IMG/VR virus record: IMGVR_UViG_3300031758_000006
Reading direction: 5' to 3' (one strand)
Origin: a virus
Length of the DNA stretch: 64,000 nt
The notes below the pieces were generated by a model that worked only from the letters and a program-made list of their open reading frames with translations, did not search any database and had not been told where the DNA came from. Both the position numbers and the translations under genes were made by a program. Below are positions 846 to 47,683 of the stretch, piece after piece. The stretch's first letter is position 1, and every line of letters starts with the position of its first letter.

Positions 846-1759
846 GTCCTTGTGAACTTAAGTATTAAGTTTACTACCAAATCACCCTGTGGTTGTTGTT
901 TAAACCCCTTATTTTTAACTCTTAGAGCTTTTGAGGTGTCGATTGTGTCTGGAAATTTTATTGACATGTCACCATCCGGGTGTGGTACAATAAAATCATC
1001 TTTTTGGATTTCATCTAAATTTAATACTTTATTGTAAATTAGGTTATTTGAAATCTTTTCGAACCCATTTTCGGGTGTTATTTGTACTCTAACCACCAAG
1101 TCACCGTACACTCCGTTTCTAAAATCACCAGACCCCTGTACTTTAACAAATTGACCATCGTCAATTCCGTGTGGTAATTTTATGTCAATTGTTTTTATCT
1201 CATCTTTATCACCAGTACCGTGACAAACGTGACAAGCGTTTTTAATAATCTTACCAGAGCCTCGACAAGTATTACATGTCATAGATACCATTTGAATAAA
1301 CATACCACTCCCCATTTGTCTAATGACGTTTCCGGAACCCCCACATTCGTGACAAACTAATTTATCACCTCCAGTTCCATTACATGGGTCACATTTTGAT
1401 TTTCGTTTAAAATTTAATTGTTTTACTTTACCTAAATAGGATTCTAATGTTCCAACGGTAACTGTGATTACAGTACTATGTACTTGTTGTCTTCGATTAC
1501 CCCTATTAAACATATTAAACATTTCATCGAAACCAGGAAAACCACCACCAAACGGATTTTGTCTGGACATGTCATATTGGTTCCTTTTTTGTTCATCACC
1601 AAGAATATCGTAAGCTACTGATATTTTTTTAAACTCTTCCTCACTACCACCAACATCTGGATGTTTTTCCTTAGCTAACTTTTTATAGGTTTTTTTTATC
1701 TCATCTTGTGTCGCTTTTTCACTAACACCTAAAATATCATAATAGTTTTCTGTATTCAT
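842..1759 (-). CDS. dnaJ: DnaJ (Hsp40) co-chaperone, type I architecture
   Basis: J-domain with HPD, G/F-rich linker, four CxxCxGxG repeats, C-terminal LPHGIDDGQ...GDL beta domain. Confidence 0.95.
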   Translation of the reverse strand: MNTENYYDILGVSEKATQDEIKKTYKKLAKEKHPDVGGSEEEFKKISVAYDILGDEQKRNQYDMSRQNPFGGGFPGFDEMFNMFNRGNRRQQVHSTVITVTVGTLESYLGKVKQLNFKRKSKCDPCNGTGGDKLVCHECGGSGNVIRQMGSGMFIQMVSMTCNTCRGSGKIIKNACHVCHGTGDKDEIKTIDIKLPHGIDDGQFVKVQGSGDFRNGVYGDLVVRVQITPENGFEKISNNLIYNKVLNLDEIQKDDFIVPHPDGDMSIKFPDTIDTSKALRVKNKGFKQQPQGDLVVNLILKFTRT

Positions 1760-8603: not shown

Positions 8604-9778
8604 ACATTTTTGGTATATGTTAAACGTTTAACTTGTTGTTCATCCTTGAAGAATCTATTCTCATCGAATAAATTTTCGTCTGGTGTGGTTGGTTGGACCT
8701 CAACTGGGATCTCAACTATTTTTTCAATTTCAACTATCCGGTCTACTGGAACCTCAACAATTTTTTCAACCTCAACTATTCGATCTACTGGAACTTCAAC
8801 AATTTTTTCAACTTCTCTAATAACCTCTACCGGAACCTCAACAATTTTTTCAATTATTATTGGTTCAGCTTGGTCGGAGCTTGTAGGTAACTTAGTCGGT
8901 ACTTGGTCGGTATCTTGTATGGTAACTTGGGGGGTGGTTGTGGGGTAGTTGTGGGGTAGTTGTGGAGTATCTTCGTCTTTTCTTTTTCCTTTAAAAGCTT
9001 GATTTGTCGCAATTACCAAGGTAATTGCCAATGGATCAAACACAAATATAAGGATTAATATAAAAAAGTTAGCAGTTTTTTTTATATCCCAATCTAACAT
9101 CTCACTCACATATTTTATCACTCCAAGTTCACTTCCCGACAACTCTTGGGATTCCATATTTAATATCTCAACGTCAAGTTTTGTAATACTGTCATTATAC
9201 CCATCAACTTTTTTTGACAATTCATCACGTCTTGTTTGAGCTTCTTTTAATTGGGATTCAAAAGTTTTACGGTTTGCGTTATTAGCTTTTGTTATTACCT
9301 GTCCGGTTTTTCTATCCACCGATTGAGTTGTTGTATTTGTCGATAATCCATCCCGTAATTTGGTGATGTCCCCATCAAGTATTGTTTTTTCTCGATTTAA
9401 TTCACTTTTTATTTCCTCAAATCTTTTTTTCTTAACTTCAACATTTTTTATTTGTTTTTCACTAATTTCAAGTTTTGATATATTTCCCTGGAATCCGGTA
9501 CTTAATAGTCCATATATACCAAGTGATGTAATTATTGATAGGGTAACTAAAGCTATGGTCATGTATATTTTCAAAACACCATAAGTTTGTTTCCATTTGT
9601 CGTGTAGATAAGTCGCGATAGCTATTTTGGATATTTCCAAAAATGATCCCATAATTATAACCGGTATAGCTACTCCAGAAAATACCACAGATAACCCTAT
9701 AACACTATAATAAGCCGCTGTACCAGATAAACCAAGAGCACAAAACAATAAAAACCAAGGTAAAAATTTTTCTTTCAT
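8600..9778 (-). CDS. Multi-pass membrane protein with coiled coil and C-terminal EKIVEVP repeats
   Basis: three N-terminal TM helices, coiled coil, further TM, four 14-aa VEKIVEVPVDRIVE-type repeats. Confidence 0.75.
   Translation of the reverse strand: MKEKFLPWFLLFCALGLSGTAAYYSVIGLSVVFSGVAIPVIIMGSFLEISKIAIATYLHDKWKQTYGVLKIYMTIALVTLSIITSLGIYGLLSTGFQGNISKLEISEKQIKNVEVKKKRFEEIKSELNREKTILDGDITKLRDGLSTNTTTQSVDRKTGQVITKANNANRKTFESQLKEAQTRRDELSKKVDGYNDSITKLDVEILNMESQELSGSELGVIKYVSEMLDWDIKKTANFFILILIFVFDPLAITLVIATNQAFKGKRKDEDTPQLPHNYPTTTPQVTIQDTDQVPTKLPTSSDQAEPIIIEKIVEVPVEVIREVEKIVEVPVDRIVEVEKIVEVPVDRIVEIEKIVEIPVEVQPTTPDENLFDENRFFKDEQQVKRLTYTKNV
8696..8854 (-). repeat. 42-bp (14-aa) coding tandem repeat x~4, VEKIVEVPVDRIVE
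   Basis: visible in DNA and translation. Confidence 0.85.
8937..8969. repeat. 11-bp tandem repeat x3 (GTTGTGGGGTA) inside CDS
   Basis: 8937-8947 and 8948-8958 identical, 8959-8969 one mismatch. Confidence 0.85.
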
Positions 9779-9865
9779 ATCAATTGTTGTCTATTTATAA
9801 ATACTATTATAGACATTTATTTGAATATGTCACTACTTCTAACTGGGTTCCGTGTTAATTGGATT

Positions 9866-9897
9866 AAAATAAAAAACCCCACGAATAATCGTAGGGT
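9866..9897 (-). terminator. Intrinsic terminator
   Basis: minus strand ACCCTACGA-TTAT-TCGTGGGGT (one U-G pair) followed by TTTTTTATTTT. Confidence 0.75.
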
Positions 9898-9924
9898 AAT
9901 TAGAAATATAGGGAGATACCAAAT

Positions 9925-10792: not shown

Positions 10793-11593
10793 TTATAAAT
10801 AATCAAATAATTCTGAACTTTCGTTTCTAAGTCTACGCAAAGCTTTATCTTTAATTTGTCTAACTCTTTCTTTTGTTAGATTAAAGTCAGATCCAATATC
10901 TTCTAACGTTCTTGGTGTTCCTGTTAATCCGTAATAATCTTCAACAATAACTCTTTCTCTATCATCTAGAATATTTAGAATTGACATCATTTTATCCTTT
11001 AATTGATCTTTAGTGTTGAAAATGGAATCTGGTGACTCCGCGTCATTGTTAACAATAACATCGATCAACGTATCACCTTCACTATTTATCGACATATTTA
11101 GATCAATAATTGATGGTAGTGATGTGAATTTGTCATCCATTTTTTTACCGGAGTTTTCAACTTCTTTTTTAGCTTTTTGTAAATCCTGAACAATATTAAC
11201 CGGGAGTCTTATGGTTCTAGCGTTATCATTTAATGACTGGATAATACTTTGTTTAACCCACCAAACCGCGTACGATATAAATCTAAGATCCTTACCCCAA
11301 TCAAAGTTTTTAATAGCTTTCATTAACCCAAAGTTACCTTCAGCTATTAAATCTTGGAGATCCATACCCTGGTTTTGGTATTTCTTAGCTACCGTAATTA
11401 CAAATCGTAAATTACCGAGTAACAGTTCTTCCTCAATTTTATCCCTTTCGTATTTAGTTGTCGACTCTAATTTCATCTTTACAGCTAATTCTTTTTCCCT
11501 ATCTGGGGTCATTACTTTAAGTTTCCTGATGTCTTTTAAATAATAATAAAGTTCTTCTTGATTAATTGGTATACCCCCATTTTTTTCCTTCAT
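10793..11593 (-). CDS. RpoD/SigA-family RNA polymerase sigma factor lacking region 1.1
   Basis: region 1.2 YLKDI, region 2 NLRFVITVAKKY..DLIAEGNFGLMKA..RFISYAVWW, region 4 TLEDIG...LTKERVRQI. Confidence 0.92.
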   Translation of the reverse strand: MKEKNGGIPINQEELYYYLKDIRKLKVMTPDREKELAVKMKLESTTKYERDKIEEELLLGNLRFVITVAKKYQNQGMDLQDLIAEGNFGLMKAIKNFDWGKDLRFISYAVWWVKQSIIQSLNDNARTIRLPVNIVQDLQKAKKEVENSGKKMDDKFTSLPSIIDLNMSINSEGDTLIDVIVNNDAESPDSIFNTKDQLKDKMMSILNILDDRERVIVEDYYGLTGTPRTLEDIGSDFNLTKERVRQIKDKALRRLRNESSELFDYL

Positions 11594-19706: not shown

Positions 19707-19928
19707 ATGCCAACCAGTATTACATTAACATCAGTTTCAGGTTTATCACCATTTCACATATACGTCTGTGATACCGGTTTTACATCTTGTATTTATGTTA
19801 ATACGGTGACACCAATTGATATTCCATATCAAATAGGTATACCACCATTATTTTCATCACTATCAAATGTTGTCGTAAAAGTAGTCGACACAAATGATTG
19901 TGAAATTAAACAAACCGTTTTAATTTGA
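19707..19928 (+). CDS. Small Cys-containing beta protein, putative virion accessory; paralog of 29354-29656
   Basis: IYVC..G...C..V.T...PY.I.IP..F...VVKVVD..DC pattern; TATTTAT at 19680-19686. Confidence 0.75.
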   Translation: MPTSITLTSVSGLSPFHIYVCDTGFTSCIYVNTVTPIDIPYQIGIPPLFSSLSNVVVKVVDTNDCEIKQTVLI

Positions 19929-21796
19929 TGTCTGTATCTTGTGGACCATATTGTATATACGTACCTGGTTACCCATATAGTGGGAATTATACTAATGCTG
20001 GTACATATGATACATATTCATACTTAACTGGTAACACAACACCAACATATTACATGTACTATTTAACTGGTGAAACAAAGTGGTGTTTATCAACAGTACT
20101 TGGTGGTTCAATTTGTGATCAATTTGGTCCATTGGGTTCAACTTCATTGTGTCCCGATTTTGATCCATCCTTTTTTAATGGTAGTGGCGTTTGTTTGACA
20201 CCGACACCAACACCGACAGTTAATTGTAGTATTCTTGATTTTGATTCAATATTAAATTGTTTTGTACCTGTTACACCAACACCGACCGCTACCCCAACTG
20301 TCACACCAACAAACACACCAACACCAACAGAGACGGATTTATGTGGTGGTTTTGGTATTAATTTAACAGTTTCCTACATAACCTCGACTCCAACACCAAC
20401 CCCAACACCAACCCCAACAGTTACACCAGAAATTACAAGGCCTTGTAATTTTAATGGTCAGGTAATTTTTAATACTTTAGATGAGTTAATGCGTTGTCCA
20501 AATAGTAGTGAATTTGTTGATTGTTATACGGGTCAAAAATATATCACATCAGAATCTGTATTTTTACCAACTGGGGATATTCTAACAATTGGTACAGTGT
20601 ATAAGATGAACGTTAATAGTGTTTCAGTATGTGCGACATTTACCGGATTGGTTGACAATATAATCGGTGTTGATCAAATTACTATTATATCGGTATTTGG
20701 ACCATCTAGTGAGGGTAATTGTATTGTTTGTGTTCCGGATTCAACACCGACACCGACACCGACAGTTACACAAACAATGACACCAACACCATCAACAACA
20801 CTTCCGGTGTGTCTTGAGTTAATAGTATCTAACACAATACCGTTTGAATCTTCATTCCAATACCACGATTGTATTTCTGGAGAATTAATCACACAATCAA
20901 TCGGTCCAAATGGATCAATAACAATATGTACCAAAAAAGAACCTTCCGGTCCATCTAACATATCTTGGGATCCAACAGGTGTTAACTGTTATCCGACAAC
21001 ACCAACACCGACACCGACAAGGACAATGACACCAACCCCAACAATGACACAAACACAAACCCCAACAATTACTCCTAGTCAAACACCACCACCATGTATG
21101 TTTATGATGACAATTGATACAAGGATAACAAATCCATCGACAAGCCCTGGAAATAGATTTAAATTCCCTAACACACCGGGTTGGGTTGACGTAACCGTTG
21201 AGTGGGGTGATGGTAGTACTGATGTATTTGGTGGTGGGTCACATGTAGCTCATATCTACCCAATTGGTGATATTTACCAATTAAAAATTTACGCGAACCC
21301 TGGTGGGTCTGTGGTTGGTTTAAACTTTGGTGTTGGTAGTAGTGATGAAATAAAAATATTAAGTATCGACTCTTGGTGTGGATTTATACCTACTGAGAAT
21401 GATAACTTACTTGGTGCTGACAATTTGGATATGTCATCAACTATTGGTGTTCCTAATATTCCTCTTGCTATTTCAACTGGAAATATCGGTTCCCTTTGGA
21501 ATATGTTTCAGGGTACTTCAGTTACTAATATTAATAACGTTGGGTCTTGGGACATCTCAGGTCTAGATATTATAGACTGGGGTAACGGTGGTGGTCCTGG
21601 TACTGGTATAAATTTAACACCGACTAATTATAGTTCACTCTTAATAGGTTGGGCTTCTTTAGGTTCCTCATTATCGGTGGGTACATACTTTGATGCTGGT
21701 ACATCACAATATAATAATGTACCGGTAGTTGTAGCTGCTAGAAATTATCTAATCCTAACAAAAGGATGGACAATAATCGATGGTGGGCCAATATAA
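19925..21796 (+). CDS. Thr/Pro-repeat, Cys-rich putative virion fibre/decoration protein with C-terminal DUF285/BspA-like module
   Basis: five (TP)n tracts; VEWGDG, ILSIDSW, NMFQG, VGSWDIS, NYSSLLIGWA, AARNYLI..GWTIIDGG. Confidence 0.8.
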   Translation: MMSVSCGPYCIYVPGYPYSGNYTNAGTYDTYSYLTGNTTPTYYMYYLTGETKWCLSTVLGGSICDQFGPLGSTSLCPDFDPSFFNGSGVCLTPTPTPTVNCSILDFDSILNCFVPVTPTPTATPTVTPTNTPTPTETDLCGGFGINLTVSYITSTPTPTPTPTPTVTPEITRPCNFNGQVIFNTLDELMRCPNSSEFVDCYTGQKYITSESVFLPTGDILTIGTVYKMNVNSVSVCATFTGLVDNIIGVDQITIISVFGPSSEGNCIVCVPDSTPTPTPTVTQTMTPTPSTTLPVCLELIVSNTIPFESSFQYHDCISGELITQSIGPNGSITICTKKEPSGPSNISWDPTGVNCYPTTPTPTPTRTMTPTPTMTQTQTPTITPSQTPPPCMFMMTIDTRITNPSTSPGNRFKFPNTPGWVDVTVEWGDGSTDVFGGGSHVAHIYPIGDIYQLKIYANPGGSVVGLNFGVGSSDEIKILSIDSWCGFIPTENDNLLGADNLDMSSTIGVPNIPLAISTGNIGSLWNMFQGTSVTNINNVGSWDISGLDIIDWGNGGGPGTGINLTPTNYSSLLIGWASLGSSLSVGTYFDAGTSQYNNVPVVVAARNYLILTKGWTIIDGGPI

Positions 21797-21800
21797 AAAA

Positions 21801-21826
21801 AAATATCGTCTAAAAAGACGATATTT
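21801..21826. terminator. Hairpin at convergent gene ends (bidirectional terminator candidate)
   Basis: AAATATCGTCT-AAAA-AGACGATATTT perfect 11-bp stem, preceded by an A run. Confidence 0.8.
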
Positions 21827-21851
21827 CAAATTATCATTATTTTAGACGATA

Positions 21852-22454
21852 TTATTTCCAAATCTCATTGGACTTCATATATCCTAGAACACAAGTGTAA
21901 GCGTCTGTCTGGTCGAAATTTTCCTTTTTTAGTGTGTTGTTTTTAGTGTATAACCACCTTATTTGTGGTTCTCTTTTAGCCACATGTTCCCAAATGATCA
22001 TTTTTTTATCAATATCTTTAGGTAACCCACCAAATAAGACGAATTTCTTTTTGTCGTTTTCTTGTACTAATTCCGGGAACGCGAATTTTCTTGAGTTATA
22101 TGTCGATATAAATTCTGGTATGATACCTAATATATTATATATTTCTTTAAAGATGAAACTATTAAACCTTAATAGTGTCTGAATTGTATATATATTGTTA
22201 GAATTTAATAATGGTTCCTCAATTATAACTTTAACAATTCCCAAATTTTTATATTCTTTTAATTTTTCTGAGAATATTTCAGATTTAAGTATCAATTCTT
22301 TTAACTTATCGTCGGGTACCGGTTTTGGTCTTGGTGATACGTGTGTCAACTCCAACAACTCTTGTGTTTTTATCTCAAATAGAGCCCAACCTATCGTTTT
22401 TGTTGATATATCTAGTCCCAAAACCTTCGGACTATTCTTAATACTTTTTGACAT
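21852..22454 (-). CDS. RuvC-like Holliday junction resolvase
   Basis: VLGLDISTKTIGW, IIEEP, DQTDA. Confidence 0.8.
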   Translation of the reverse strand: MSKSIKNSPKVLGLDISTKTIGWALFEIKTQELLELTHVSPRPKPVPDDKLKELILKSEIFSEKLKEYKNLGIVKVIIEEPLLNSNNIYTIQTLLRFNSFIFKEIYNILGIIPEFISTYNSRKFAFPELVQENDKKKFVLFGGLPKDIDKKMIIWEHVAKREPQIRWLYTKNNTLKKENFDQTDAYTCVLGYMKSNEIWK

Positions 22455-22507
22455 AATATTCTTTTTAATTTAAAAATAATATATATCGAAAAAAAATGAA
22501 TAATTTA

Positions 22508-25126
22508 TTAAAAATCTATTTTAACCAAATACTGTTGTATACCGGTTCTTAGTGTTGGTGATTGTAGTTTCGACATAACAAGTATATCTTTATTCTCATC
22601 CAATAGAGCTATTTCGGTAATATAAGATTTGGTTCCTGGGGTCCAGGTTGGGTTTGTTGTGTTTTGGAATTCAGTATCATTCAGATTTATCTTATACCTC
22701 ATCTCGTAAATTGTGGCTTGAATGTCTGACTCCAGTGATCCGTAAAAATAATATTCATCACCAAAATTTAAATTCAAACCGGTCGTTCCGTTAGGTACCA
22801 ATTCAACATAATCATTTAGGTTATAATACGGTGCTGTGTTATATAATTCGGGTGTAATTATAAATGTAGTCCCGGTAAGTGAAGTCTCCGTAACATACCC
22901 ATTTAAGAATTGATCTGAAATCGCTGATGTATAATCAATTATTTTCCAAAGTGATGAATCAGGTCTTTGACCTGTAGGTACTAATTGACATATAATTTCA
23001 AATGTATCAGCGTAATATCCGTTTGGAATGTCACAGGTTGTTGGACAAATTGTTGTTGTTTCGGTGACAACAGGATTAATTGTTGTTGTGGTGGTGACTG
23101 GTACATAGTCAGGTTGTGTTAAACATTGGAATTCCCCACCAAATCTAATCGCTACGTTTTTTGAAGTTTCTGGAGTACATATGTTACTTTCTGTTATTTT
23201 TGAGTAATAATTACAGTGTAGGGAGTTTGTGAAGTCCACAGTGTTTGATAACCTATATGTAACATACAACGTTTGACTACTACCTGTAATAATACCAGTT
23301 AAACTAGTTGTTATATCGCATGTATTTGGTGTTATTAGTGATATTTGTGGTGCTGGTAGTGTCCAATTCCTATTTGATTTGTATGACATAGCAGCTACCA
23401 ACTCTTCGTCATCAATTACCACCATTTTATTGTCTGGGAATACTTTACCAACTCTATTTGGTATACCATCAGAATTAGGGTTTGTGTCCCATAAATGGTA
23501 ATATCTAATTCCTGGTTGATTCATATCTGAATTCTTCTTGGATTTAATGTATTGTACCTTAAATAGGTCTTTATCATCAAATCCAGGTGGGTCAACCCAA
23601 AAAGTTTCACCAAAACAACATTCAGGGTTTTTGTGCCACATTAACCACGGAACATGGAATTTAAAATTCCTAGCTTGACCGGTAGTGTCCTGTGGGTTTG
23701 TTGGGTCGTATGGTTCCAACGCAAACTTTTCACCATAAAATAAATCTATGGTCTGGTTGGTGTAGTGTACTATTGAGACACATTTTTGTTCTTCTGGTTT
23801 AACCTCAATAATCTCATCAAATGAATTATAATAAAATGTTCTACTTGTATCTGACTGTCCCAAACTAGAGTTATAACCCAAATACTCTTTTGTACCTATG
23901 TAATCAATCGATCCAAACTTGGTATAATCCTCAAAAGTGTTATAATTTAATCCAGCTGGATTCTCCGTCCATGGAATATTCATATTCCAAATTTTAACAT
24001 CAAACTCATCAATATCACAAACAGTTTCAAAATTAATAGCGTCCGTACTCCAGTGTGGTCTAGGTGTTACACTGTCATATAAAGTCGTCATATTTGGTGG
24101 GTATATCAACGTTCTAGCGATACATCCAGGTAATAACCCAAGTAAATTTGGTGTTGGTCTATCTAAAGTTAACTTATTACCACAAACACCAACTATTTTA
24201 TAGGTTAGGATTGGATAACATGAATTTAATGACACTAAACAACTAACTTCTGGTTCTGGTGGACACACAGGTCTTGGACTTGGTGACAAACAAGGTGTTT
24301 TGGTTGGTGTAGGTGTTGGGGAAGGTGATATACAAGGGTAATCTTTTGTTGAACTTGGTGTGGGTGTTGGTGTGGGTGTTGGTGTTGGTGATGTTTCGGG
24401 TGATCCTAAACCATTTCCACCCCCATTTCCAATACCTAATGATGATTCATCACAATAAATTAAATTATCGTCATTTTCGGTCATTAGATTCTCAGTTAAT
24501 TCTGTTAAAATGTTACATGAGTCTATTGTCGGTGTTGGACTTGGTGTGGGTACTGGTAAATTTGTACATTCACAGTTATATGATGACTTTCCATCATAAA
24601 AAATAGTTATTATATCACCAACACTTGGTTTTTTAATGTTTGTTGTATTACAACCAGAGTATATGACATCAATAGTATTTGACCCGTCGAGTTTTGACAT
24701 GTCAACAACGTAGTTTGCACTTATAACATACCTATCACTAGTTAAAGCACTCCAACTAATTGTGTCAGCTGTTGTGTTCCCGGTAAAAAATCCTCTTAAT
24801 GGTGCTCTGTTATACACAGAATCAACCACCGAATCCATATATGGTATACCATATGTATTCCCACTAGTACCGTCAACAAAATATGGATATTTTATACTGT
24901 GTTTTGTTGATTGTGGAATACCTGTACTATTTTGTGTGTTAAATGGTGGTTCAAGTACATAACTATTGGGGTAGTTATATAACTCTGGTAGTTTGTTGTA
25001 CGATATTTCACTATCACCGATTTGGAAATACTTTATATTGAAGTTGCCCTGGGATAGTTTCTGTCTACCGGTATCTGTTACTCTGGTATTTACCAAACCA
25101 CTTGTATTTTTAATTATGTACGCCAT
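22508..25126 (-). CDS. Baseplate/tail structural protein with Pro/Thr/Ser tracts
   Basis: TDTGRQKL..YFQIGDSEISY N-terminus, ITEIALLDEN...KL.SP C-terminus, SPTPTPTP/SPSP/TTTTT inserts. Confidence 0.7.
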   Translation of the reverse strand: MAYIIKNTSGLVNTRVTDTGRQKLSQGNFNIKYFQIGDSEISYNKLPELYNYPNSYVLEPPFNTQNSTGIPQSTKHSIKYPYFVDGTSGNTYGIPYMDSVVDSVYNRAPLRGFFTGNTTADTISWSALTSDRYVISANYVVDMSKLDGSNTIDVIYSGCNTTNIKKPSVGDIITIFYDGKSSYNCECTNLPVPTPSPTPTIDSCNILTELTENLMTENDDNLIYCDESSLGIGNGGGNGLGSPETSPTPTPTPTPTPSSTKDYPCISPSPTPTPTKTPCLSPSPRPVCPPEPEVSCLVSLNSCYPILTYKIVGVCGNKLTLDRPTPNLLGLLPGCIARTLIYPPNMTTLYDSVTPRPHWSTDAINFETVCDIDEFDVKIWNMNIPWTENPAGLNYNTFEDYTKFGSIDYIGTKEYLGYNSSLGQSDTSRTFYYNSFDEIIEVKPEEQKCVSIVHYTNQTIDLFYGEKFALEPYDPTNPQDTTGQARNFKFHVPWLMWHKNPECCFGETFWVDPPGFDDKDLFKVQYIKSKKNSDMNQPGIRYYHLWDTNPNSDGIPNRVGKVFPDNKMVVIDDEELVAAMSYKSNRNWTLPAPQISLITPNTCDITTSLTGIITGSSQTLYVTYRLSNTVDFTNSLHCNYYSKITESNICTPETSKNVAIRFGGEFQCLTQPDYVPVTTTTTINPVVTETTTICPTTCDIPNGYYADTFEIICQLVPTGQRPDSSLWKIIDYTSAISDQFLNGYVTETSLTGTTFIITPELYNTAPYYNLNDYVELVPNGTTGLNLNFGDEYYFYGSLESDIQATIYEMRYKINLNDTEFQNTTNPTWTPGTKSYITEIALLDENKDILVMSKLQSPTLRTGIQQYLVKIDF

Positions 25127-25140
25127 TTACGAATAAATAT

Positions 25141-27087
25141 TTAGAATATCTTTTTAGGTGGATTATTGACCAAAATTTCACAACAATCACAATTGGTAAC
25201 ATCTACCGTACCGATGGATAAAGACATACTCAAATTGTTTCCTTTACAGAACCCAATATTTGGTGTTAAAATGTCGTCGGTATATGTTCCAGTTATGGTG
25301 TTATTTCCGGTTATAACAAATGTTCCGGATCTATTATAGATTTCCTGGATACCAGTGAATAACGGTGGACAACCATTTAATGATGGTATTATAGCTGACG
25401 TACCGGAATCTATTGGTAATTGACCATAACCATTAACTGTCACCACACAATCGTATGTTGGTACCGGATCAATAGCTCTTTTCCAATATTTAAATACACT
25501 TTGTTGGTTTAATTCAAATGATATTGATGTCCCAATTGGTAGTGGGTTATCCAGTGATATTGTAAATGAATTTGTATTTACATCTAATGATAATGTTAGG
25601 TTATAGACCGATGTTGGTGCTGGTACTAATGTAGCTGTTGTGTTACTCACACTTCCTGTTGAATCTTTTACAAAGATCAAATAAGTTCCTGGTGATAGGT
25701 TCATAAATGTTGGTGCTAATTGATATGTCACTCCTCCATTTATTGAATATTCATATGGTGGTACACCTGTCGTTGCGTTAATAATTATACTACCATCATT
25801 ACCACATATTGGTTGACTTTCAACTACTTTGAAGTTTATTATTGATAGTGGTTTACACTGACCCACATTAACAATTACTGAGGATATTATTGACGCTCCA
25901 ACTGGTTGCCACCCAACGACTGGTGGTGTGACTGGATTTGAGTTTACGAATTGTCCAGGGAATGGTCCGTCAATAATCCAATTGGATGTTATTCCTGTGT
26001 TCCAATATAATTCATAATCACCACCTAGTGATAACCATTGTTGTTGACCATTTATTAATCCATTAGGGTATAATACTTCTTGATAAACCGTGTCTTTAAT
26101 CTCATATTCGTTTGTTATTAGATTGAATATTGCTATCGACTGAATATATGTTAAACATAAGGTTTCACCAAACGGTATTGTTGTTGTTGTGGTTACAGGT
26201 ATAAGTGTTGTTGTTGTAGTTACTTGTGATTCTAAAATACAGGTTGTTCTAACAATAAAATCACCATAATAATCGGTAACAGTTGCTGGATATTCACCAA
26301 CATTTAAATCACTTAACACCGTACTAACACTTCCATTTTCCCAATTTATTTGGTATGGTGGGGTTCCACCTGTAATTACCAATGTTAATAGACCATCAAA
26401 AGATGTATTGGTTGACGGGTCTACCGATAAACATTTAACACCCATGGGATATAATGTAAGTACGTCACACTCATTACCTCGTTTAATTGGTATTGGGTTT
26501 GGTTTAAAATATGGTATTGTTGTGGTTGTGGTTACATGTGGTATTTGAGTGGGTGTTGGGGTTGGTGTTGGGGTTGGTGTGGGTGACGGTGATATTGGTG
26601 GTTGTGGACACGGGTTTGATTGTTCACATAATACACAATGATAATATAAAACCTCATCAAACGATAATGTTGTCACATCCACATATAGGTCTGGATCACA
26701 ACTATAGATTGGTGGACTCTGGTTATTACCAAAACTAACCAATTCAAAACAACCACTAAAATTTTGGTTTGGGTTTGATGATGATATGGCTTGATTAAAA
26801 TAATACGTTTGTCCAATTGTGGCCGAACTAAACACTGGGGAGGTACTTACCCCCTTAAAGGATATTAGTTCCCCATCACAACAACCACTAAAACAATATG
26901 TGGTGTCTGTCTTATTATAAAATGATACAGTAACGTCAAGTGATGGTGATGTTACTGAAAATGAAAATAAAAAATAGGTCAGACTTGGTTGTAGGTTAAT
27001 AACCTTCGACGTACCGTATCCATCAACAAAATTAAATCCGTTATAAACTGTTGTTCCGGTATTTTTAACCGACCATATAGCACCCAT
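25141..27087 (-). CDS. Putative virion protein with SprB-like repeats and PT/TTTTT tracts
   Basis: TGGTPPYQINW, ATTGVPPYEYSING, SPSPTPTPTPTPT, three TTTTT runs. Confidence 0.75.
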   Translation of the reverse strand: MGAIWSVKNTGTTVYNGFNFVDGYGTSKVINLQPSLTYFLFSFSVTSPSLDVTVSFYNKTDTTYCFSGCCDGELISFKGVSTSPVFSSATIGQTYYFNQAISSSNPNQNFSGCFELVSFGNNQSPPIYSCDPDLYVDVTTLSFDEVLYYHCVLCEQSNPCPQPPISPSPTPTPTPTPTPTQIPHVTTTTTIPYFKPNPIPIKRGNECDVLTLYPMGVKCLSVDPSTNTSFDGLLTLVITGGTPPYQINWENGSVSTVLSDLNVGEYPATVTDYYGDFIVRTTCILESQVTTTTTLIPVTTTTTIPFGETLCLTYIQSIAIFNLITNEYEIKDTVYQEVLYPNGLINGQQQWLSLGGDYELYWNTGITSNWIIDGPFPGQFVNSNPVTPPVVGWQPVGASIISSVIVNVGQCKPLSIINFKVVESQPICGNDGSIIINATTGVPPYEYSINGGVTYQLAPTFMNLSPGTYLIFVKDSTGSVSNTTATLVPAPTSVYNLTLSLDVNTNSFTISLDNPLPIGTSISFELNQQSVFKYWKRAIDPVPTYDCVVTVNGYGQLPIDSGTSAIIPSLNGCPPLFTGIQEIYNRSGTFVITGNNTITGTYTDDILTPNIGFCKGNNLSMSLSIGTVDVTNCDCCEILVNNPPKKIF

Positions 27088-27116
27088 AGTGTTTTATTTA
27101 ATAAATAATCGTTTTT

Positions 27117-28088
27117 TTATTTTTTTAAGTATGACTTCATCACTTCTATGTATTTTATTGTGGAACTTTCCGGATCTATATAATCAAAATGTCTAATATC
27201 TTCCGATAATTTAACTAAAGGGTCGACATTAATGTAATCCCCTTTGTAGAATTTTGTACTTTTTAAATTTTCGGTAACACCAGCCATGTGTAATATTGGT
27301 GATTTTTCATATTTTTCTATTGTGTCAGTAGCCCAGGAAAAATCTAACTTATCGGTAACTTTAGTCTCAACATTATGTAACCATAAATTCCATAACAATG
27401 ACCACATTTCCGCTGTCCAAAACTGTATTTGACCTGGGTTTATTGGGAATCTTTTTTGGTAATCCATCATTTGATCGTATAGTGGTGTACAATCACAATA
27501 TATTTTACACCACAAATCACTATTCGTATTTTTAATTAAGTATTGACCACCACCTGAATTTTCCTGATTATCTTTTATTACATTAATGTCAATCCCAACA
27601 ACCTCAGCCATTTCCTCAAATAATTCATTTTTGTAAGTACTAATGTGTTGGTTTTCGTATTTACGACAACAACTTATTATATACTCATACCCAATGTATG
27701 AAATTGTATTTGACATGTATGTTATACCATCTTTCAATAATGAATCAAAATCTGGAAGTTCTCTGAAAATAATATCAGCGTCATGTAGAAAAAATAAGTC
27801 ACCTCGACTTTCATCTTCTTTAATCCATTTATGTATTAGAAATGGTTTAATACTGGGTATGTATGATTTTTTTTCCCTATCATCAATATAAAAGTGTACA
27901 TTAACACCCATGTCCCTTAATTTTTCACCTTCTTCTGAGGGTGTGTGGTTACCGTTAACTAATCCAAAAATTATATGAATATTTTCAGGTTTAATCCCGT
28001 TTTGTATGAAATTATGAACATATACCTTGGATTGCCAATGGAAGTATGGGACATCTGGTTGTGCCGTTACAAATAGAATATCTTTCAT
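27117..28088 (-). CDS. GT-A glycosyltransferase resembling peptidyl O-glycosyltransferases (GT96 SGT1 / GT95 HPAT-like)
   Basis: YFHWQ, YIPSIKP, LHDADIIFR (DxD), SGGG, WTAEM in the same order as recalled plant SGT1 motifs YFDWQ, YPAINKP, ILDADMIIR, VGG, WISEM; no signal peptide. Confidence 0.65.
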   Translation of the reverse strand: MKDILFVTAQPDVPYFHWQSKVYVHNFIQNGIKPENIHIIFGLVNGNHTPSEEGEKLRDMGVNVHFYIDDREKKSYIPSIKPFLIHKWIKEDESRGDLFFLHDADIIFRELPDFDSLLKDGITYMSNTISYIGYEYIISCCRKYENQHISTYKNELFEEMAEVVGIDINVIKDNQENSGGGQYLIKNTNSDLWCKIYCDCTPLYDQMMDYQKRFPINPGQIQFWTAEMWSLLWNLWLHNVETKVTDKLDFSWATDTIEKYEKSPILHMAGVTENLKSTKFYKGDYINVDPLVKLSEDIRHFDYIDPESSTIKYIEVMKSYLKK

Positions 28089-28123
28089 AAATAAAATATA
28101 TTTGTAAAATGAACAAAGTGAAC

Positions 28124-29332
28124 CTAATAAATCTTATTTAAAACTAATATTTCAGTAAAAATGAAATTAGCTGCGTTTGTTGAATTGAACTGTGCTGTAA
28201 TGTCAAGTTGATTTGGGATTGTCGTATCAAAAGTAGTTTGATTTAAAGTACTAAAATTATCACCTTCAAAGGTACCACCGGCATTTTGTGTAAATGTAAA
28301 GAAACCCGAAGATTGTATTTTTGCATTTCCAGCAGTACCCACAGCTCTAATAGTAAATGTTACTTCAAAAGAAAAATGTGATGACGTAACATTTGGCATA
28401 TTAAGTGGTCCAACAACACCAAATTCAGCAGAACCTGATTTTACTCGTAGTGTTAAATCGTCACCATTGTTAGCACCTAAGTCACCGGATACCCTAACAA
28501 CAAAAGAATCACCAACAGAAAATCCGTTTGTTGGAACGTTTAATGTACCCACACCAGGTCCAATAATACTTAATTCTGATGTTGTGCCAGATACTGTAAT
28601 ACTATTTCCTGTTTGAGCATATAGACCAAAAACTGTTGGTCCAGGAATTGTTTTATATTTTACCATTCCAGATATGGTATCCCTAACTAAATAATCGGTA
28701 GCGGTTTGGTCCTGTGGTGGTGTATTCTTTATCAATAAATTATTTATATGTACCGTACAAGCTGATTGTGTTGATATGTTACTTCCGATTACTGTTGAAA
28801 AGTTATGATTTATCACGTTTCTACACCCTCCGACTATTGTCGAATAGCAAGAGTTTATTATATTCCCGTTAGCCAGTAATATTGACCCCCCACCAACAAT
28901 TGATGAAAAAGTACCATTAACAACATTTTGTATACCACCACCAATAAAATTATAATTACATAAAGTTTTATTACCCAACGCTGGACATGATCCACCACCA
29001 CCGGTTATCACGGATCTGTCCCCACTGACGGTGTTAAATCCACCTCCACCAACAAATCCAGCTAAACCTAATACAGTATTACTGATACCACCACTAACGA
29101 CAGAACAATTACCGGATGAGTCTGATGATGTCCCAATTCGTTGTGTTGAGTCCGTTCCGGGTCCAACTTCATATAATGTTGTTCCGGTAAATCCGGATAT
29201 TACTTGTTCAATTGTAGCTTTATATGAGGATCCAGCTGGGTTTCCTTGTGATATGTCGGTTGGTATTACGATGTGTATAAGATCGTTTAATGTTACACCA
29301 GAAGCTAATGTTTGGTCAGTTAAAAAAGCCAT
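28124..29332 (-). CDS. Tail fibre-like protein with Gly-rich beta-roll repeats
   Basis: repeated S.V.GG..N units; TATTTAT upstream. Confidence 0.7.
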   Translation of the reverse strand: MAFLTDQTLASGVTLNDLIHIVIPTDISQGNPAGSSYKATIEQVISGFTGTTLYEVGPGTDSTQRIGTSSDSSGNCSVVSGGISNTVLGLAGFVGGGGFNTVSGDRSVITGGGGSCPALGNKTLCNYNFIGGGIQNVVNGTFSSIVGGGSILLANGNIINSCYSTIVGGCRNVINHNFSTVIGSNISTQSACTVHINNLLIKNTPPQDQTATDYLVRDTISGMVKYKTIPGPTVFGLYAQTGNSITVSGTTSELSIIGPGVGTLNVPTNGFSVGDSFVVRVSGDLGANNGDDLTLRVKSGSAEFGVVGPLNMPNVTSSHFSFEVTFTIRAVGTAGNAKIQSSGFFTFTQNAGGTFEGDNFSTLNQTTFDTTIPNQLDITAQFNSTNAANFIFTEILVLNKIY

Positions 29333-29353
29333 GTTATTTTTATTTTATAAATA

Positions 29354-29656
29354 TTACTGGAAGTCATAAATATCCCCAGACATAAAATAAAACTCAGTAC
29401 CGTCTTGGAATAGTTTTTCTGGGTCAAAGTTTTCACAATACAAAATATGGAATCTTTCACAACCGTCACTTGTGATAATTTTTAAACCGATAGCTGGTGC
29501 GGTGTCAAAAGATGGTGGTAAAATATAACTAACTATTGGTGGTACCGTACTAGTCAAATTATCCAATGAAATACAGTCATCACCAAAAACATTACAGACG
29601 TAGATCATATAGTTTGGTCCCAAACCGGTTATATTTGTTATAATAACTTGTGTCAT
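29354..29656 (-). CDS. Small Cys-containing putative virion accessory protein; paralog of 19707-19928
   Basis: start reassigned to MTQVIIT (TAATG overlap with upstream stop); IYVC...C...P..F...LKIITSDGC. Confidence 0.75.
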   Translation of the reverse strand: MTQVIITNITGLGPNYMIYVCNVFGDDCISLDNLTSTVPPIVSYILPPSFDTAPAIGLKIITSDGCERFHILYCENFDPEKLFQDGTEFYFMSGDIYDFQ

Positions 29657-31848
29657 TATGGAATTGTCGTTGTGGTGGTTATTGGTGGTAGTCCACAATC
29701 AATACATGATATATCATAAACTATTTTCAAGTTAATAATAAAATTAGACCCATCGTATTGGTTAAATGAATATGGTTGACAAGATTCTTGGATTTCGGCA
29801 CAATCGTTATATATTATAATTTCATTATTATTTACATCAAAATCAACATTACCAACACCTGGGAATTGTTGTAAAGTTTGTCTAACAGTATCTAGATATT
29901 GTAATTCGGTTGGGTAATCTGTAATTCCAGATGAGGTGTAGAACGTATTTTCAATCACGCTGTCGTCAATTTTAACCTCAACAATAAATTGAGCTGAGTT
30001 GATAATACATCCATAGTCGTTCAAAGTTAGATCATAAAAACCTTCATTAAACATTTGTAATATCCCCCGTTTACCTAATTGTCCGGTGTTTTTAAAAACT
30101 TTTTCACAAACCGTATATGTTTCATATGATGATACCAATTTAGTACCTTTTAAAATCACTGATTTAGTCAGTGAACATCCGTCCGAATCAACTACTTGTA
30201 GGGTATATGTACCCGCTGATAGGTTATTTATTGATGGTGTTGTTTGACCACCTGGTGACCAAAGATATGTAAACGGTGGTGAACCACTGGTTATCATCGT
30301 TGATATTTGACCATCATTACCTGTTACCGGATCAAACGGTAATAGAGTGAAAAATACATTTTGACTTGGGTTAACGTAGAAATTGGTTGTTTGAATACAT
30401 CCAACTGAGTCTAAAACATAAGCGGTGTATGTTCCAGGTGCTAACCCGTTAAAGGTGTTTGACACTTGGTATGGGTATGTAACGGGACTACTAGTTGGTC
30501 CAACAACTTGGTATGTATATGGGATAATCCCCCCAGTTGTAGCTATTATTTTAACTGACCCATTATTAAGTCCACAGGTTGTATTTGTTACGGTGGTGTT
30601 GACTCTAAATTTGTCAACATTTTTAATTTCAATTATTTCGGTATATGTACAAACACCATCATCAATTATCAATGTATAAATTCCACTGGATAATCCGTTA
30701 TAGTTAAATATTGTATTTTCATTAATGTCAAATACAGTATTCCCAGAGGAATCGATTAATTGGTAACTATATGTTCCGGATGGTACACCAGAATTTAGTG
30801 TAACACTTATAGACCCGTCTAAATTACTACAAAAAGAATTTGTTACCGTGATATTTGTCACACTAAAACTATTGGTGGTAATGACGTTTGTTGATCCAGA
30901 TGTTGCACAAAATCCAGAATCCTGGACAAACACATTAAATACACCTGACGACACATTTGTGAATGTATATGATGTTGAGAATGATATTATGTTTTCCCCG
31001 TTGGATCCTGAGTAGAAGAATGGTCCGGTTCCACCCAATAACTGTACTGTCACGTCACCATCACTACCAAAGCAACTGGGTTGGGTAGCTGTTATTAACC
31101 CAATACTCACATTATCTACTTTTCCAACACCTGTAATATTAGTTACGGAACAACCAAGTGAATCCGTAACTGTAACTGGGTAAAACCCTTCTGTTAGTCC
31201 GGTAATTGTTGATCCGGTTTGACCAATACAACTATATGTGTATGGTGGTGTGCCTGTAACCCCAGTTATATATATTTTACCATTTGGTATTCCAGAACAA
31301 CCATAGTTATCAACAACATATGTTCCAAAATTAAGGGTATTTGATGTGTATACTAATACGGTTTCACTTGTTCCGGAACATCCACCCTCATCACTTACTG
31401 TGACATAATATGTGTCAGCTGAAACTGGGTCAAATACCGCAAACGTACCACCATTTTTAACATCTAAAACATTACCTGATATATCATATAGGGTATAACT
31501 GTTAGACCCAAAAACTGATTGTGTTGTAGCGGTTATAGATCCGTTGTCATTCCCACATGTACTACCACTGGATGATAGACTTACGGTTATACCACTGGAA
31601 ATGTTAAACCCATATATACTTGGTGGATCTGGTGTAGCGTCTTGTATGTATACAAAATAACTAAACCCAGTTAGATTATTAGCTGAATAACCGGTCACAC
31701 CAACAGATGTTGGTAATAACCCAGTTGTTGTAGCTTCGTACACAGTGAACGTTGGACTATCCCCAGCTATATCAAATGATACCGCTCCTAAACCACTGTT
31801 GGTACAGTCCCCGGTTACGGATAAGTTATATATTGAAATGAATCCCAT
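29656..31848 (-). CDS. SprB-repeat structural protein
   Basis: about six G.I....G..PYTY...T..L..G.Y.V.V.D..GC repeats; C-terminal PPITTTTTIP. Confidence 0.8.
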   Translation of the reverse strand: MGFISIYNLSVTGDCTNSGLGAVSFDIAGDSPTFTVYEATTTGLLPTSVGVTGYSANNLTGFSYFVYIQDATPDPPSIYGFNISSGITVSLSSSGSTCGNDNGSITATTQSVFGSNSYTLYDISGNVLDVKNGGTFAVFDPVSADTYYVTVSDEGGCSGTSETVLVYTSNTLNFGTYVVDNYGCSGIPNGKIYITGVTGTPPYTYSCIGQTGSTITGLTEGFYPVTVTDSLGCSVTNITGVGKVDNVSIGLITATQPSCFGSDGDVTVQLLGGTGPFFYSGSNGENIISFSTSYTFTNVSSGVFNVFVQDSGFCATSGSTNVITTNSFSVTNITVTNSFCSNLDGSISVTLNSGVPSGTYSYQLIDSSGNTVFDINENTIFNYNGLSSGIYTLIIDDGVCTYTEIIEIKNVDKFRVNTTVTNTTCGLNNGSVKIIATTGGIIPYTYQVVGPTSSPVTYPYQVSNTFNGLAPGTYTAYVLDSVGCIQTTNFYVNPSQNVFFTLLPFDPVTGNDGQISTMITSGSPPFTYLWSPGGQTTPSINNLSAGTYTLQVVDSDGCSLTKSVILKGTKLVSSYETYTVCEKVFKNTGQLGKRGILQMFNEGFYDLTLNDYGCIINSAQFIVEVKIDDSVIENTFYTSSGITDYPTELQYLDTVRQTLQQFPGVGNVDFDVNNNEIIIYNDCAEIQESCQPYSFNQYDGSNFIINLKIVYDISCIDCGLPPITTTTTIP

Positions 31849-45384: not shown

Positions 45385-47223
45385 TCAAGAGAAATTAATG
45401 TTCTTAAAATTAAGAACTCTGACAGATATATCCTTATTTGGGTATCTTATTTGATAAATTTGACTTGGTTCAGCGAAAATAGTATCAGCTACCAATTCTA
45501 TTTGTTTTGTTGTTGGGTTGGAATATCTCTGTGACGTTTGGTTTGATGAATATTGACCCCCAACTTTATTAAAGAATCTAATATCGGAAATACTAATCAC
45601 CCCGTTTTCACTTTGTATTAGTCGTCTAATTTCAGACACATTAATGTTTCTACCTAATTGTTGGTTTAATGGACTAAAATACGAACTAATAATATCTATT
45701 GTTTTACTAATTAAAGACCCTTGGTTTTGTGTTGAGTCTAGAACAACGTCAACTTCAATACTAAGATCTATTGGACTAGCTGATTCTATAGAAATGTAAT
45801 CATTTATCATTCGATAGTTAGATAAGTAATTAGCTACGTTTGATTTTATTGTGTTCGATATGTTATCAGTTAGATTACCTTCGGTGTCGTATGATAACAT
45901 TTTTATTTTAATTTTATTATTTTCCTCCAATACCGATACCTTAGCTGGAGCACCAAATTGTGATGGCATTGTTCTTAAAATAGATTCGTAATCATTAATC
46001 GTTACCGCTCTGTTTTGTGCCGCAAAGTTAAATGATACATATTGTCTAACCTCCTCAACTGTTGGTTGGTTAGATCCACCAATAGCTGCGGTAACATTAT
46101 TACATTTTAATGAGTTTATTACCAATCTATTCTCACTATCAGATGGACCGTTAACGGAGAATGAGACGGTTCCTATTTGTGTGATCACATTAGAACCTAA
46201 ATTTGTCGCTTGTCCACCACCTATTCTATACTGTATAAATAAAGTTGAGTTTGATTTTAAAGCTGATCCCAATCCTAGGTTATTTGAGTACTTATTTAGA
46301 TCAAAATAAGCTCCATTTCTAGCAAACTCCCGTAATTGTTCTTCAGCTGAAACACTACCCCCACCAAATGTCATTTTTAAAAATCCTTCAGGTGTATATT
46401 CGGTAACAAATTTTGTGTTAGTAGTTATATATTTCCCAACTTTAACCCCTGGTTGGTCAGAAACTTTGGTTGGGTCCTCAATAAAGACTCTGTCCTCAGC
46501 TAAAGCTTTTACTTCGTACCATCTATTATCTAACCCTAAAAATTCTTGTGGTTGGGGTATCGTGTTATATTGTGTACCGTCTTTGAGTAATACACTAGTA
46601 ACACCTAATACGTTTTTTTCTGGTAAAAATAACTCAAAGAATGGTCTAACATCGTTAGCGGTTATAATTCTTTTAAATACCTTTGTTATACCATTAACAA
46701 CAACTTCTCGTTTTGTTATGGTGTAATTACTTAATGACCCATCTGAGTTAAAATTAGGTACTTTCAATCTATTTGGTGATCCTTCAGAGTTAACTGGTGA
46801 TGAAAAGTCTATATCATATACCGTTTCAAATGGTTGTCCAGCTCCACTAACCTGAGATCCCCTTCTTAAAATACCACAATATCTTAAATCTTCACTGTCC
46901 CCAAAAGCTGGAACCTGTATTGAGAAATCAACCAAAGCGACTGATGGTCTTTGTCCTGGGATTTTTAAACCATATGTTCTAGCTATGTTATATACTGAAG
47001 ATTTTTGTTGAGCGTATTGTAAAACTGTTTCTTGGATACTTCTATCAATTTGAAATTGTAGGTTGTCGGTTACCGCAGCATTTAAATCTAACATCACTGA
47101 AAAAATACCAGCGTCGTTAAAATTTTGAATTAGGTCTGGATAATAAGTTCTAGTAAAATTAATCAACTCAGTTCTTATCCCCTGGAAATCCCTTGTTGTG
47201 TACGATATTTTCTTTTCAGCCAT
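45385..47223 (-). CDS. Baseplate wedge subunit (T4 gp6 / baseplate J-like)
   Basis: RDFQGIRTEL, YRIGGG...N, AQNRAVT..DY motifs; adjacent to gp25-like gene. Confidence 0.85.
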   Translation of the reverse strand: MAEKKISYTTRDFQGIRTELINFTRTYYPDLIQNFNDAGIFSVMLDLNAAVTDNLQFQIDRSIQETVLQYAQQKSSVYNIARTYGLKIPGQRPSVALVDFSIQVPAFGDSEDLRYCGILRRGSQVSGAGQPFETVYDIDFSSPVNSEGSPNRLKVPNFNSDGSLSNYTITKREVVVNGITKVFKRIITANDVRPFFELFLPEKNVLGVTSVLLKDGTQYNTIPQPQEFLGLDNRWYEVKALAEDRVFIEDPTKVSDQPGVKVGKYITTNTKFVTEYTPEGFLKMTFGGGSVSAEEQLREFARNGAYFDLNKYSNNLGLGSALKSNSTLFIQYRIGGGQATNLGSNVITQIGTVSFSVNGPSDSENRLVINSLKCNNVTAAIGGSNQPTVEEVRQYVSFNFAAQNRAVTINDYESILRTMPSQFGAPAKVSVLEENNKIKIKMLSYDTEGNLTDNISNTIKSNVANYLSNYRMINDYISIESASPIDLSIEVDVVLDSTQNQGSLISKTIDIISSYFSPLNQQLGRNINVSEIRRLIQSENGVISISDIRFFNKVGGQYSSNQTSQRYSNPTTKQIELVADTIFAEPSQIYQIRYPNKDISVRVLNFKNINFS

Positions 47224-47224
47224 G

Positions 47225-47683
47225 TTATATGTTAATAATTACAAAATCACTGCTTTCTAAAGCTTGATTGGTTATTCTATAGTCTATTCTAACTTTAGCG
47301 GTGTGTTCTCTATCACCTATATTGGTTACCTTAAATTCTCTCTCACCAGAATCCGTAATATAAGTACCTTTGTCTTCCAAACCTAACGAAGCGTCAGTTA
47401 TTTTTATGTTTGTTATAAGTATACCTGGTATGTATTTTTCAACCGAATCTCTAATCTCAAACTCAATATCACTAAATGTTGGTCCATCCAATGGTTCAAA
47501 TATATATTCATATAATCTTGTACCAAAATCTGGTAAAAAATATCTACTACCCTTTCTAGTTAATAAAAGATGAATTAGATTATTTCTAATTTCTTCATCA
47601 ATAGTATCTGAAGCGTCAAGATACCTCCCAACAAAAGAATCCCTAAAGGGAAATGTTATACCATATGTTATACCGTTAGACAT
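47225..47683 (-). CDS. Baseplate gp25/GPW-like protein
   Basis: LLLTRKGSR...PDFGTRLYEYIFEP. Confidence 0.88.
   Translation of the reverse strand: MSNGITYGITFPFRDSFVGRYLDASDTIDEEIRNNLIHLLLTRKGSRYFLPDFGTRLYEYIFEPLDGPTFSDIEFEIRDSVEKYIPGILITNIKITDASLGLEDKGTYITDSGEREFKVTNIGDREHTAKVRIDYRITNQALESSDFVIINI

Follow-up and report, generated by a model that had tools for sequence, protein, structure and literature searches.

A phage glycosyltransferase family gained and lost together with oligo-threonine runs in virion proteins, and its candidate role in virion O-glycosylation

General O-glycosylation in Bacteroidota is periplasmic and uses the sequon D-(S/T)-(A/I/L/V/M/T), and the plant enzymes HPAT and SGT1 are Golgi membrane proteins. 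Virion glycosylation by phage enzymes has, to our knowledge, so far been established solely in mycobacteriophages. In Che8 (gp108-110), Corndog and Myrna, phage transferases have been proposed or shown to O-glycosylate exposed tails of the capsid and tail-tube proteins (Freeman et al., 2023, as cited in PMC12363180 and PMC12619734). Here, we analyze a 64,000-nucleotide stretch of DNA from a large freshwater phage (IMG/VR record IMGVR_UViG_3300031758_000006, hereafter the window), in which a predicted glycosyltransferase, P0001, is encoded among tail proteins that carry tracts of Thr, Ser and Pro (Table 1). We propose that P0001 is probably a phage-encoded initiating O-glycosyltransferase whose acceptors are oligo-threonine runs in those linkers and tails of virion proteins that are exposed, as comparison of sequences and structural models suggests. 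The analysis shows the predicted fold of the enzyme, its conserved DxD motif, the genomic position of its gene, and the coupled gain and loss of enzyme and Thr runs; from these we infer the acceptor and the initiating role, and with them the sugar and any benefit to the phage.

Coupled gain and loss of enzyme genes and threonine runs

Genes of the P0001 family were found in the structural module, beside genes for proteins with Thr runs, in seven phage lineages, that of the window included. The six others are represented by Enterococcus phages phiFL1A and nattely, Staphylococcus phage SA2, Clostridium phage phiCTP1, Lactobacillus phage Iacchus and Chryseobacterium phage MA9V-3; nearby structural proteins are poly-Thr-tagged in all six, mostly in C-terminal tails. 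In phiFL1A, SA2 and phiCTP1, the enzyme gene has the tail-tube gene on one side and the tail chaperones on the other; in nattely it follows the capsid gene. The tagged proteins differ from phage to phage, being the capsid and tail-tube proteins (C-terminal tails) in phiFL1A, the tail-tube protein (its tail and its extension) in SA2, and the portal protein, gp11 and gp18 (tails) in phiCTP1. In SA2 (L083:9111-9924), the tail-tube gene ends with a run of eight Thr (T8; runs are hereafter given by their length), and an overlapping open reading frame (ORF) of 90 residues in another frame (9652-9924) contains three more long Thr/Ser runs. This ORF has the look of an extension, reached by frameshifting, that would give the tail-tube protein extra tags.

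The coupling was examined in relatives of phiFL1A by searching IMG/VR with the body of the tail-tube protein without its tail, which returned 27 loci. The tail-tube protein and the capsid protein, the latter encoded 2 kb upstream, each have a T6-x2-T7 tail in 13 of 13 loci with the enzyme, and poly-Thr tails are present in 0 of 14 loci without it, the protein bodies aligning to the same residues. By a hand calculation that ignores relatedness, so perfect a split would arise by chance once in 20,058,300. Because the two states are interleaved within both the 84% and the 66% tail-tube identity classes, enzyme and tails must have switched at least three times. The original prediction for this locus, made by a model from sequence alone, expected the enzyme to co-occur with tract-bearing genes, and across unrelated phages its presence does track Thr-rich tags on virion proteins.

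Relatives from the window's own lineage were collected with the enzyme (80 loci) and with the C-terminal part of P0002, a fibre-like protein encoded near it (80 loci). Synteny was conserved in the enzyme-found loci. Among the P0002-found loci, T4 or longer runs occur in 68 of the 69 that have the enzyme. Six others have full flanks without the enzyme, at two separate places on a quick tree, and T5 runs occur in none of them. One of the six, L139, belongs to a genome (G003) of 257,166 bp with inverted terminal repeats, rated 100% complete. Searches with positive controls found no homologue of the enzyme in the whole record, whose 79,667 encoded residues include 0 T5 runs and 18 (TP)3+ tracts. 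Two complete enzyme-bearing relatives have 8 and 7 T5 runs, and 16 and 20 (TP)3+ tracts. The density of (TP)n tracts in the loci is alike, at 0.43 per kb with the enzyme and 0.40 per kb without it.

The alignment of P0002 locates the change within a single protein. In enzyme-bearing members, one site holds an array of T5-6 runs; in one enzyme-less clade the T-run segment is deleted, and P0002 of L139 retains the insert but has other residues in place of the runs. All aligned relatives, with or without the enzyme, retain the N-terminal (TP)n linker. Since the enzyme-less relatives lose T5 runs and keep (TP)n tracts, the likely acceptor moves from Pro-Thr linkers to oligo-Thr. Elsewhere in the lineage, the gene that follows the enzyme at one locus (L058:11013-17219, plus strand) encodes a 2,068-residue, extreme mucin-like protein with 38 tracts of at least six consecutive Ser, Thr or Pro residues ([STP]≥6).

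The original prediction had taken the (TP)n linkers as the acceptor, and in that form it is not supported, as enzyme-less relatives retain these tracts at equal density while lacking T5 runs. That the enzyme glycosylates (TP)n/SPSPTP extensin-like linkers, possibly after proline hydroxylation in the manner of plant HPAT and SGT1, with the Thr runs incidental, would fit the concentration of (TP)n tracts in the genes around it and the finding that HPAT is its nearest named family by predicted fold and language-model features. We nevertheless consider it quite unlikely, given the equal tract numbers per kb and per genome and the conserved P0002 linker, and also because the tags of the Firmicutes phages are poly-Thr without proline repeats. 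In addition, the prolyl 4-hydroxylase domain (PF13640), which the original prediction had suggested looking for, was not found in four near-complete relatives, in searches where control genomes gave matches; a hydroxyproline route is therefore unlikely. Virion O-glycosylation as such, the broader part of the original prediction, is backed by the comparative tests, with oligo-Thr in place of (TP)n as the probable acceptor.

The converse search started from the runs themselves. A DNA pattern for at least seven Thr codons retrieved 118 IMG/VR stretches. The enzyme was found in 7 of 43 records with an in-frame T7+ run and in 0 of 39 out-of-frame control records (Fisher p = 0.0085). It lay within the fetched stretch at six loci, and directly beside the poly-Thr gene at five of these. 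L344, whose enzyme gene directly follows the gene of a poly-Thr tail protein, was counted in neither tally. The enzyme is nearly always accompanied by Thr runs, and many Thr-run proteins occur without the enzyme. Poly-Thr tags in enzyme-less phages may use other transferases or none.

The enzyme, its predicted fold and its likely acceptor

P0001 contains the motifs YFHWQ (residues 15-19), YIPSIKP (76-82), HDAD (102-105), SGGG (178-181) and WTAEM (224-228). A hydrophobic segment is absent from its N-terminus, and the first Rossmann strand begins at residue 5 in the structural model; sequence and model alike indicate a soluble protein. The reading frame and its position, the five motifs and the lack of a signal peptide had all been described correctly at the outset. 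P0001 matches PHROG 4417, a family without assigned function, with E = 2e-69 (residues 6-319 on positions 3-290 of the 293-position profile). Using tblastn, enzymes of this type were detected in 77 phage records, 74 of them full length, mostly from Firmicutes phages and including one Chryseobacterium phage. The family has 1,205 relatives of P0001 in a protein collection clustered at 90%, 829 representatives at the 50% identity level, and members in at least 592 IMG/VR stretches.

Conservation was assessed, and an AlphaFold2 (AF2) model of P0001 built, on 57 diverse family members. The model has a predicted local distance difference test score (pLDDT) of 96.9 and a predicted template modeling score (pTM) of 0.94. 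Residues Y76, D105, Y131, G180, Q222, F250, H267, G270 and K282 are invariant in the family. The DxD motif is H-D103-A-D105, in which D105 is invariant and D103 is kept in at least 90% of the 57 members. In LgtC and glycogenin, a C-terminal His is the third metal ligand and a Gln lies near the anomeric carbon; the invariant Q222, H267, G270 and K282 come in an order that recalls these GT8 metal- and donor-binding residues, a likeness by order only.

Foldseek returned 288 matches in the PDB at E ≤ 0.001; those listed were all glycosyltransferases, with template modeling (TM) scores by query of 0.38-0.46 for the solved structures among them. By VIA-align, in which rows within 1 Z count as ties, the top solved fold was glycogenin (Z 15.3; root-mean-square deviation (rmsd) 3.4 over 222 residues), followed by the UGGT catalytic domain, WbbM and Skp1 AgtA (Z about 14 each), LgtC (13.9), GlyE (13.6) and LARGE1 (13.4). 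A search of solved structures by sequence, with P0001 alone and with the family profile, gave nothing significant (best E 0.12, to TAL effector repeats, and 0.7, to GNPTAB), and the sole Pfam match of P0001, DUF5614, was at chance level. Judging from the predicted fold and the family-wide DxD, P0001 is a GT-A glycosyltransferase of the retaining, GT8-like kind. This agrees with the glycosyltransferase assignment of the original prediction, which would have been undermined by a DNA- or lipopolysaccharide (LPS)-modifying enzyme as the best structural match; the best matches are not specifically enzymes of either sort.

Phage glycosyltransferases are best known, as described in PMC12619734, for DNA glucosylation and for changing host surface sugars. 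This, and the presence of LgtC and WbbM among the close folds, would favor an acceptor other than protein, for example phage DNA bases or the teichoic acid, LPS or capsule of the host, the link to Thr runs being indirect or coincidental. Such an acceptor appears very unlikely to us. The gene sits inside late structural operons, in the gap between tail tube and chaperones in three siphophage lineages, which is not the location of a lysogenic-conversion gene. The repeated gain and loss in step with Thr runs would be left without explanation, and the out-of-frame controls show zero association.

Other sugar genes bear on whether the enzyme initiates glycosylation or extends it. Members of the family are fused to GT60-type N-acetylglucosamine (GlcNAc) transferase, protein O-fucosyltransferase, GT2, GT6, GT32 and GT1 domains, and also to F5/8C lectin-like and radical-SAM/SPASM domains. 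The radical-SAM and SPASM fusions form four clusters (P0278-P0280 and P0282) of about 660 residues, with a pairing typical of peptide-modifying maturases, which hints at combined peptide modification. The enzyme-bearing jumbo relatives of the window have 6-7 GT2 matches, and two of them an epimerase. One (G007, 271-281 kb; L220:10535-19285) has an island of three GT2 genes with genes for a DegT/DnrJ-type sugar aminotransferase, a beta-keto acid cleavage enzyme and PhoH. This island lies about 5 kb from another pair of T5/(TP)n proteins (L221:6256-9922). The complete enzyme-less relative, L139, has zero GT2 matches, and it seems that an entire capacity for glycosylation is gained and lost together.

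It could be asked whether P0001 elongates a glycan already put on the Thr runs by another host or phage enzyme. The sugar genes of the jumbo relatives are compatible with this, as is the fact that most of the closest solved folds (UGGT, XXYLT1, AgtA, GlyE and LgtC) act on sugars already attached to proteins or lipids. However, GT2 and GT1 genes were not found in five isolated phages that have the enzyme. Elongation would thus need a host initiator in Enterococcus, Clostridium and Chryseobacterium alike, and the top fold match, glycogenin, glycosylates a protein side chain directly. Elongation is therefore unlikely in our view, and the five isolates favor an initiating role.

Several points weigh against P0001 as an initiating enzyme for oligo-Thr runs. 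Support is comparative or comes from structural prediction for every family member. The fold matches do not discriminate the acceptor: scores span about 2 Z units and gaps of 1 Z are ties, so that the acceptor cannot be read from the fold, and the LPS enzymes LgtC and WbbM stand about 1 Z or more below glycogenin. One locus of the window's lineage, L193, has the enzyme and zero T5 runs within its flanks. In the converse search, 36 of the 43 in-frame poly-Thr records (G011-G053) lack the enzyme; these are mostly fragments, and the enzyme is also absent from three of the four in-frame records rated at least 90% complete. Finally, the coupling of the enzyme with the tail-tube tail could partly reflect physical linkage, the two being contiguous. 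That linkage is the whole explanation is made less likely by the tails on the capsid protein, 2 kb away, and by the genome-wide runs in jumbo phages.

The initiating reading would work as follows. Late in infection, a cytoplasmic, metal-dependent, retaining-type GT8-like GT-A enzyme, distantly linked to plant HPAT, would move a sugar from a nucleotide sugar to the hydroxyls of oligo-Thr runs (T5 to T8) located in the C-terminal tails of virion proteins or in disordered linkers between their domains. In the window, the likely substrates would be the TTTTT runs in P0002, P0003 and P0004, the fibre-like tail proteins whose genes flank that of the enzyme; the (TP)n tracts would be ordinary linkers, independent of the enzyme. 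Exposed parts of the particle would thereby acquire a small mucin-like glycan patch, which could stiffen, protect or mask the linkers.

The window and its tract-bearing proteins

The window has a G+C content of about 31-33% and consists of phage DNA, which also encodes a ribonucleotide reductase, a DnaB-like helicase, a primase, a UvsX-like recombinase and an SbcC-like protein. Its closest matches among isolated phages, Flavobacterium myoviruses, and an uncultured 484-kb phage share only 27-28% identity with it in the baseplate protein. Contigs with close relatives of the enzyme-cluster genes reach 257-318 kb and are rated 99-100% complete, which places the window, as far as sequence can tell, in a jumbo phage lineage. 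Its hosts are probably Bacteroidota, given the SprB repeats in two of its proteins and the affinity to Flavobacterium phages. The presence of gp6- and gp25-like wedge genes on the same strand, and again of the SprB repeats, supports the assignment of the enzyme gene's co-directional block to the tail and baseplate, as had been suspected from the start. The two longest ORFs in Table 1 probably encode large structural proteins of the jumbo phage.

Table 1. Coordinates of the enzyme gene, the tract-bearing genes and other genes of the window.
Feature	Position	Strand	Remarks
GT-A glycosyltransferase P0001 (predicted), 323 residues	27117-28088	-	PHROG 4417; AF2 model; fold matches
Fibre-like protein P0002, 872 residues	22508-25126	-	Lineage-conserved; three N-terminal (S/T)P tracts in 24302-24547; one TTTTT at 23081-23095
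Multi-domain beta protein P0003, SprB repeats	25141-27087	-	Adjoins enzyme gene downstream; 15-residue SP/TP tract at 26548-26592; three TTTTT runs at 26518-26532, 26206-26220 and 26179-26193
SprB-repeat protein P0004, 730 residues	29656-31848	-	C-terminus ...PPITTTTTIP, T5 at 29665-29679
Opposite-strand protein P0005, 623 residues	19925-21796	+	Five [STP]≥6 ((TP)n) tracts; zero T5
ORF, 402 residues, Thr/Ser-rich	28124-29332	-	Between enzyme gene and P0004; no Pfam or PHROG match
ORF, 114 residues	29354-29698	-	Between enzyme gene and P0004; no Pfam or PHROG match
Baseplate wedge gene, gp6-like	45385-47223	-	PHROG 219/6
Baseplate wedge gene, gp25-like	47225-47683	-	PHROG 261/43
RuvC-like Holliday junction resolvase gene	21852-22454	-	PHROG 159/827; between opposite-strand Pro-Thr protein and fibre-like genes
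ORF, >2,089 residues	57648-63998	-	Runs off window end; no PHROG match where tested
ORF, 1,916 residues	39563-45313	-	No PHROG match where tested
DnaJ homologue, phage-encoded	842-1759	-	All three domains
Sigma-70 family factor, phage-encoded	10793-11593	-	Regions 2 and 4

The (TP)n, SP and TTTTT tracts reported in the original prediction are all present where it placed them. The [STP]{6,} tracts of the whole window are almost confined to 19925-27087. Its T≥4 runs number five, each exactly T5, and all lie within the three genes flanking the enzyme gene (P0002, P0003 and P0004). All five stand in the frame [V/I]-T5-[I/L]-x-P. When residues were shuffled within each protein, any T5 run appeared in just 2-4% of trials. 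The runs are encoded by mixed ACC, ACA, ACT and ACG codons, which argues for a pattern kept at the protein level; an origin by DNA slippage was rejected on the same ground. Unlike the Bacteroidota sequon, every run has Val or Ile before it and Ile or Leu after it, and Asp flanks none of the five.

An AF2 model of P0003, built on 33 sequences (pLDDT 78), has folded beta domains at residues 1-156, 212-288 and 306-648. The long low-confidence segments, 157-211 and 289-305, hold the Pro-Thr tract and all three T5 runs; the other dip in confidence is at 122-127. The model supports the view that the T5 segments of P0003 are accessible linkers between folded domains. P0005, whose homologues differ greatly in length and in how many tracts they have, need not be a substrate, and its linkers are probably plain ones. 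The fibre-like proteins (19925-27087 and 29656-31848) are rich in Cys for proteins made in the cytoplasm, at 2.6-3.4% vs about 1% elsewhere in the window, and conserved Cys residues flank their linkers, for instance in C-P-x-x-C-D after the T-run array.

Comparison with described glycosylation systems

The plant enzymes HPAT (GT95) and SGT1 (GT96) match the role proposed for the phage enzyme in being peptide O-glycosyltransferases with an initiating role that act on repetitive, disordered, Ser/Pro-rich stretches. They differ from the phage enzyme, as P0001 is predicted to be soluble and not membrane-bound, and the sequence associated with the phage enzyme is oligo-Thr instead of Ser-Hyp4. The relationship is remote at best by sequence and model. 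The Pfam HPAT model (PF23452; curated cut-off 23.9 bits) gave no match to P0001 at E ≤ 1, nor any at that threshold in ten records with homologues, and control genomes likewise gave none. HPAT is the commonest weak match across the family (3 of 57 members; best E 1.3e-4), and PF23452 is found on 19 of the 30 nearest named Atlas clusters by language-model features. The nearest named predicted fold is a Chlorophyta HPAT/ShK cluster (TM 0.72; rmsd 4.0 over 286 residues; both models predicted). The GT95 homology put forward in the original prediction is thus weakly supported, by a possible likeness of predicted folds, and at the level of sequence the HPAT model stays below threshold on P0001; the motif order that it likened to GT96 is a lead at most. 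A search for plant SGT1-like relatives among longer proteins returned 17 fused microbial forms and zero plant proteins.

GT8-type and related enzymes (glycogenin, LgtC, GlyE and XXYLT1, with UGGT of GT24 and AgtA of GT77) have the GT-A fold in common with P0001, with Z 13.6-15.3 over 207-245 residues. The phage family has the DxD motif of such enzymes and a conserved C-terminal His...Gly...Lys stretch, and two of the GT8-type enzymes, glycogenin and GlyE, act in protein glycosylation. Sequence identity between P0001 and these solved folds is 8-13%, with no sequence-level match to any solved chain.

We see an evenly balanced case for going one step further and regarding PHROG 4417 as a widespread phage and bacterial branch of the HPAT/SGT1-type peptide O-glycosyltransferases, starting cytoplasmic mucin-like O-glycosylation on a minimal oligo-threonine sequon. 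If so, one portable gene and a short tag would sugar-coat capsids, tail tubes and fibres in phages whose hosts range from Firmicutes and Bacteroidota to other groups; Enterococcus and Staphylococcus phages of a type under consideration for therapy would be among them.

An initiating role on oligo-Thr runs, if true, would by itself explain what the members of a large family, now labeled "hypothetical", do and would bear on antibody recognition, stability and host range of therapy phages. It would also provide a compact enzyme-plus-tag pair for cytoplasmic O-glycosylation in bacteria. As isolated phages with the enzyme gene exist, the claim is directly testable. Literature searches for poly-threonine tags, the enzyme family, HPAT in phages and glycosylated Enterococcus phage proteins found no description of such a system; their coverage was incomplete, which makes them weak evidence of novelty.

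If P0001 and its relatives act in this way, virion glycosylation would extend from mycobacteriophages to phages of Enterococcus, Staphylococcus, Lactobacillus, Lactococcus, Clostridium and Chryseobacterium and to freshwater jumbo phages, on the basis of a different enzyme family and a simple oligo-Thr tag. The likeness to mycobacteriophages lies in the proteins concerned, since their capsid and tail-tube subunits are made in the cytoplasm and the phiFL1A-like tags are at the C-termini of the same two proteins. We examined the Che8 genes from the GenBank record. Che8 gp108-110 are a GT2 with methyltransferase, a GT2 and a GT25-like protein, whereas the enzyme described here belongs to another family; hhalign of the enzyme family profile against Che8 gp110 gave a probability of 0.05%. 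The Che8 glycosyltransferase genes are at the genome end, in contrast to the PHROG 4417 genes in the structural module, and the C-termini of the Che8 capsid and tail-tube proteins have no Thr runs. Glycosylation in Che8 has been shown experimentally, and in the phages considered here we infer it. Given these differences in family, location and C-termini, the process would be akin to that of mycobacteriophages, with another family of enzymes and another tag.

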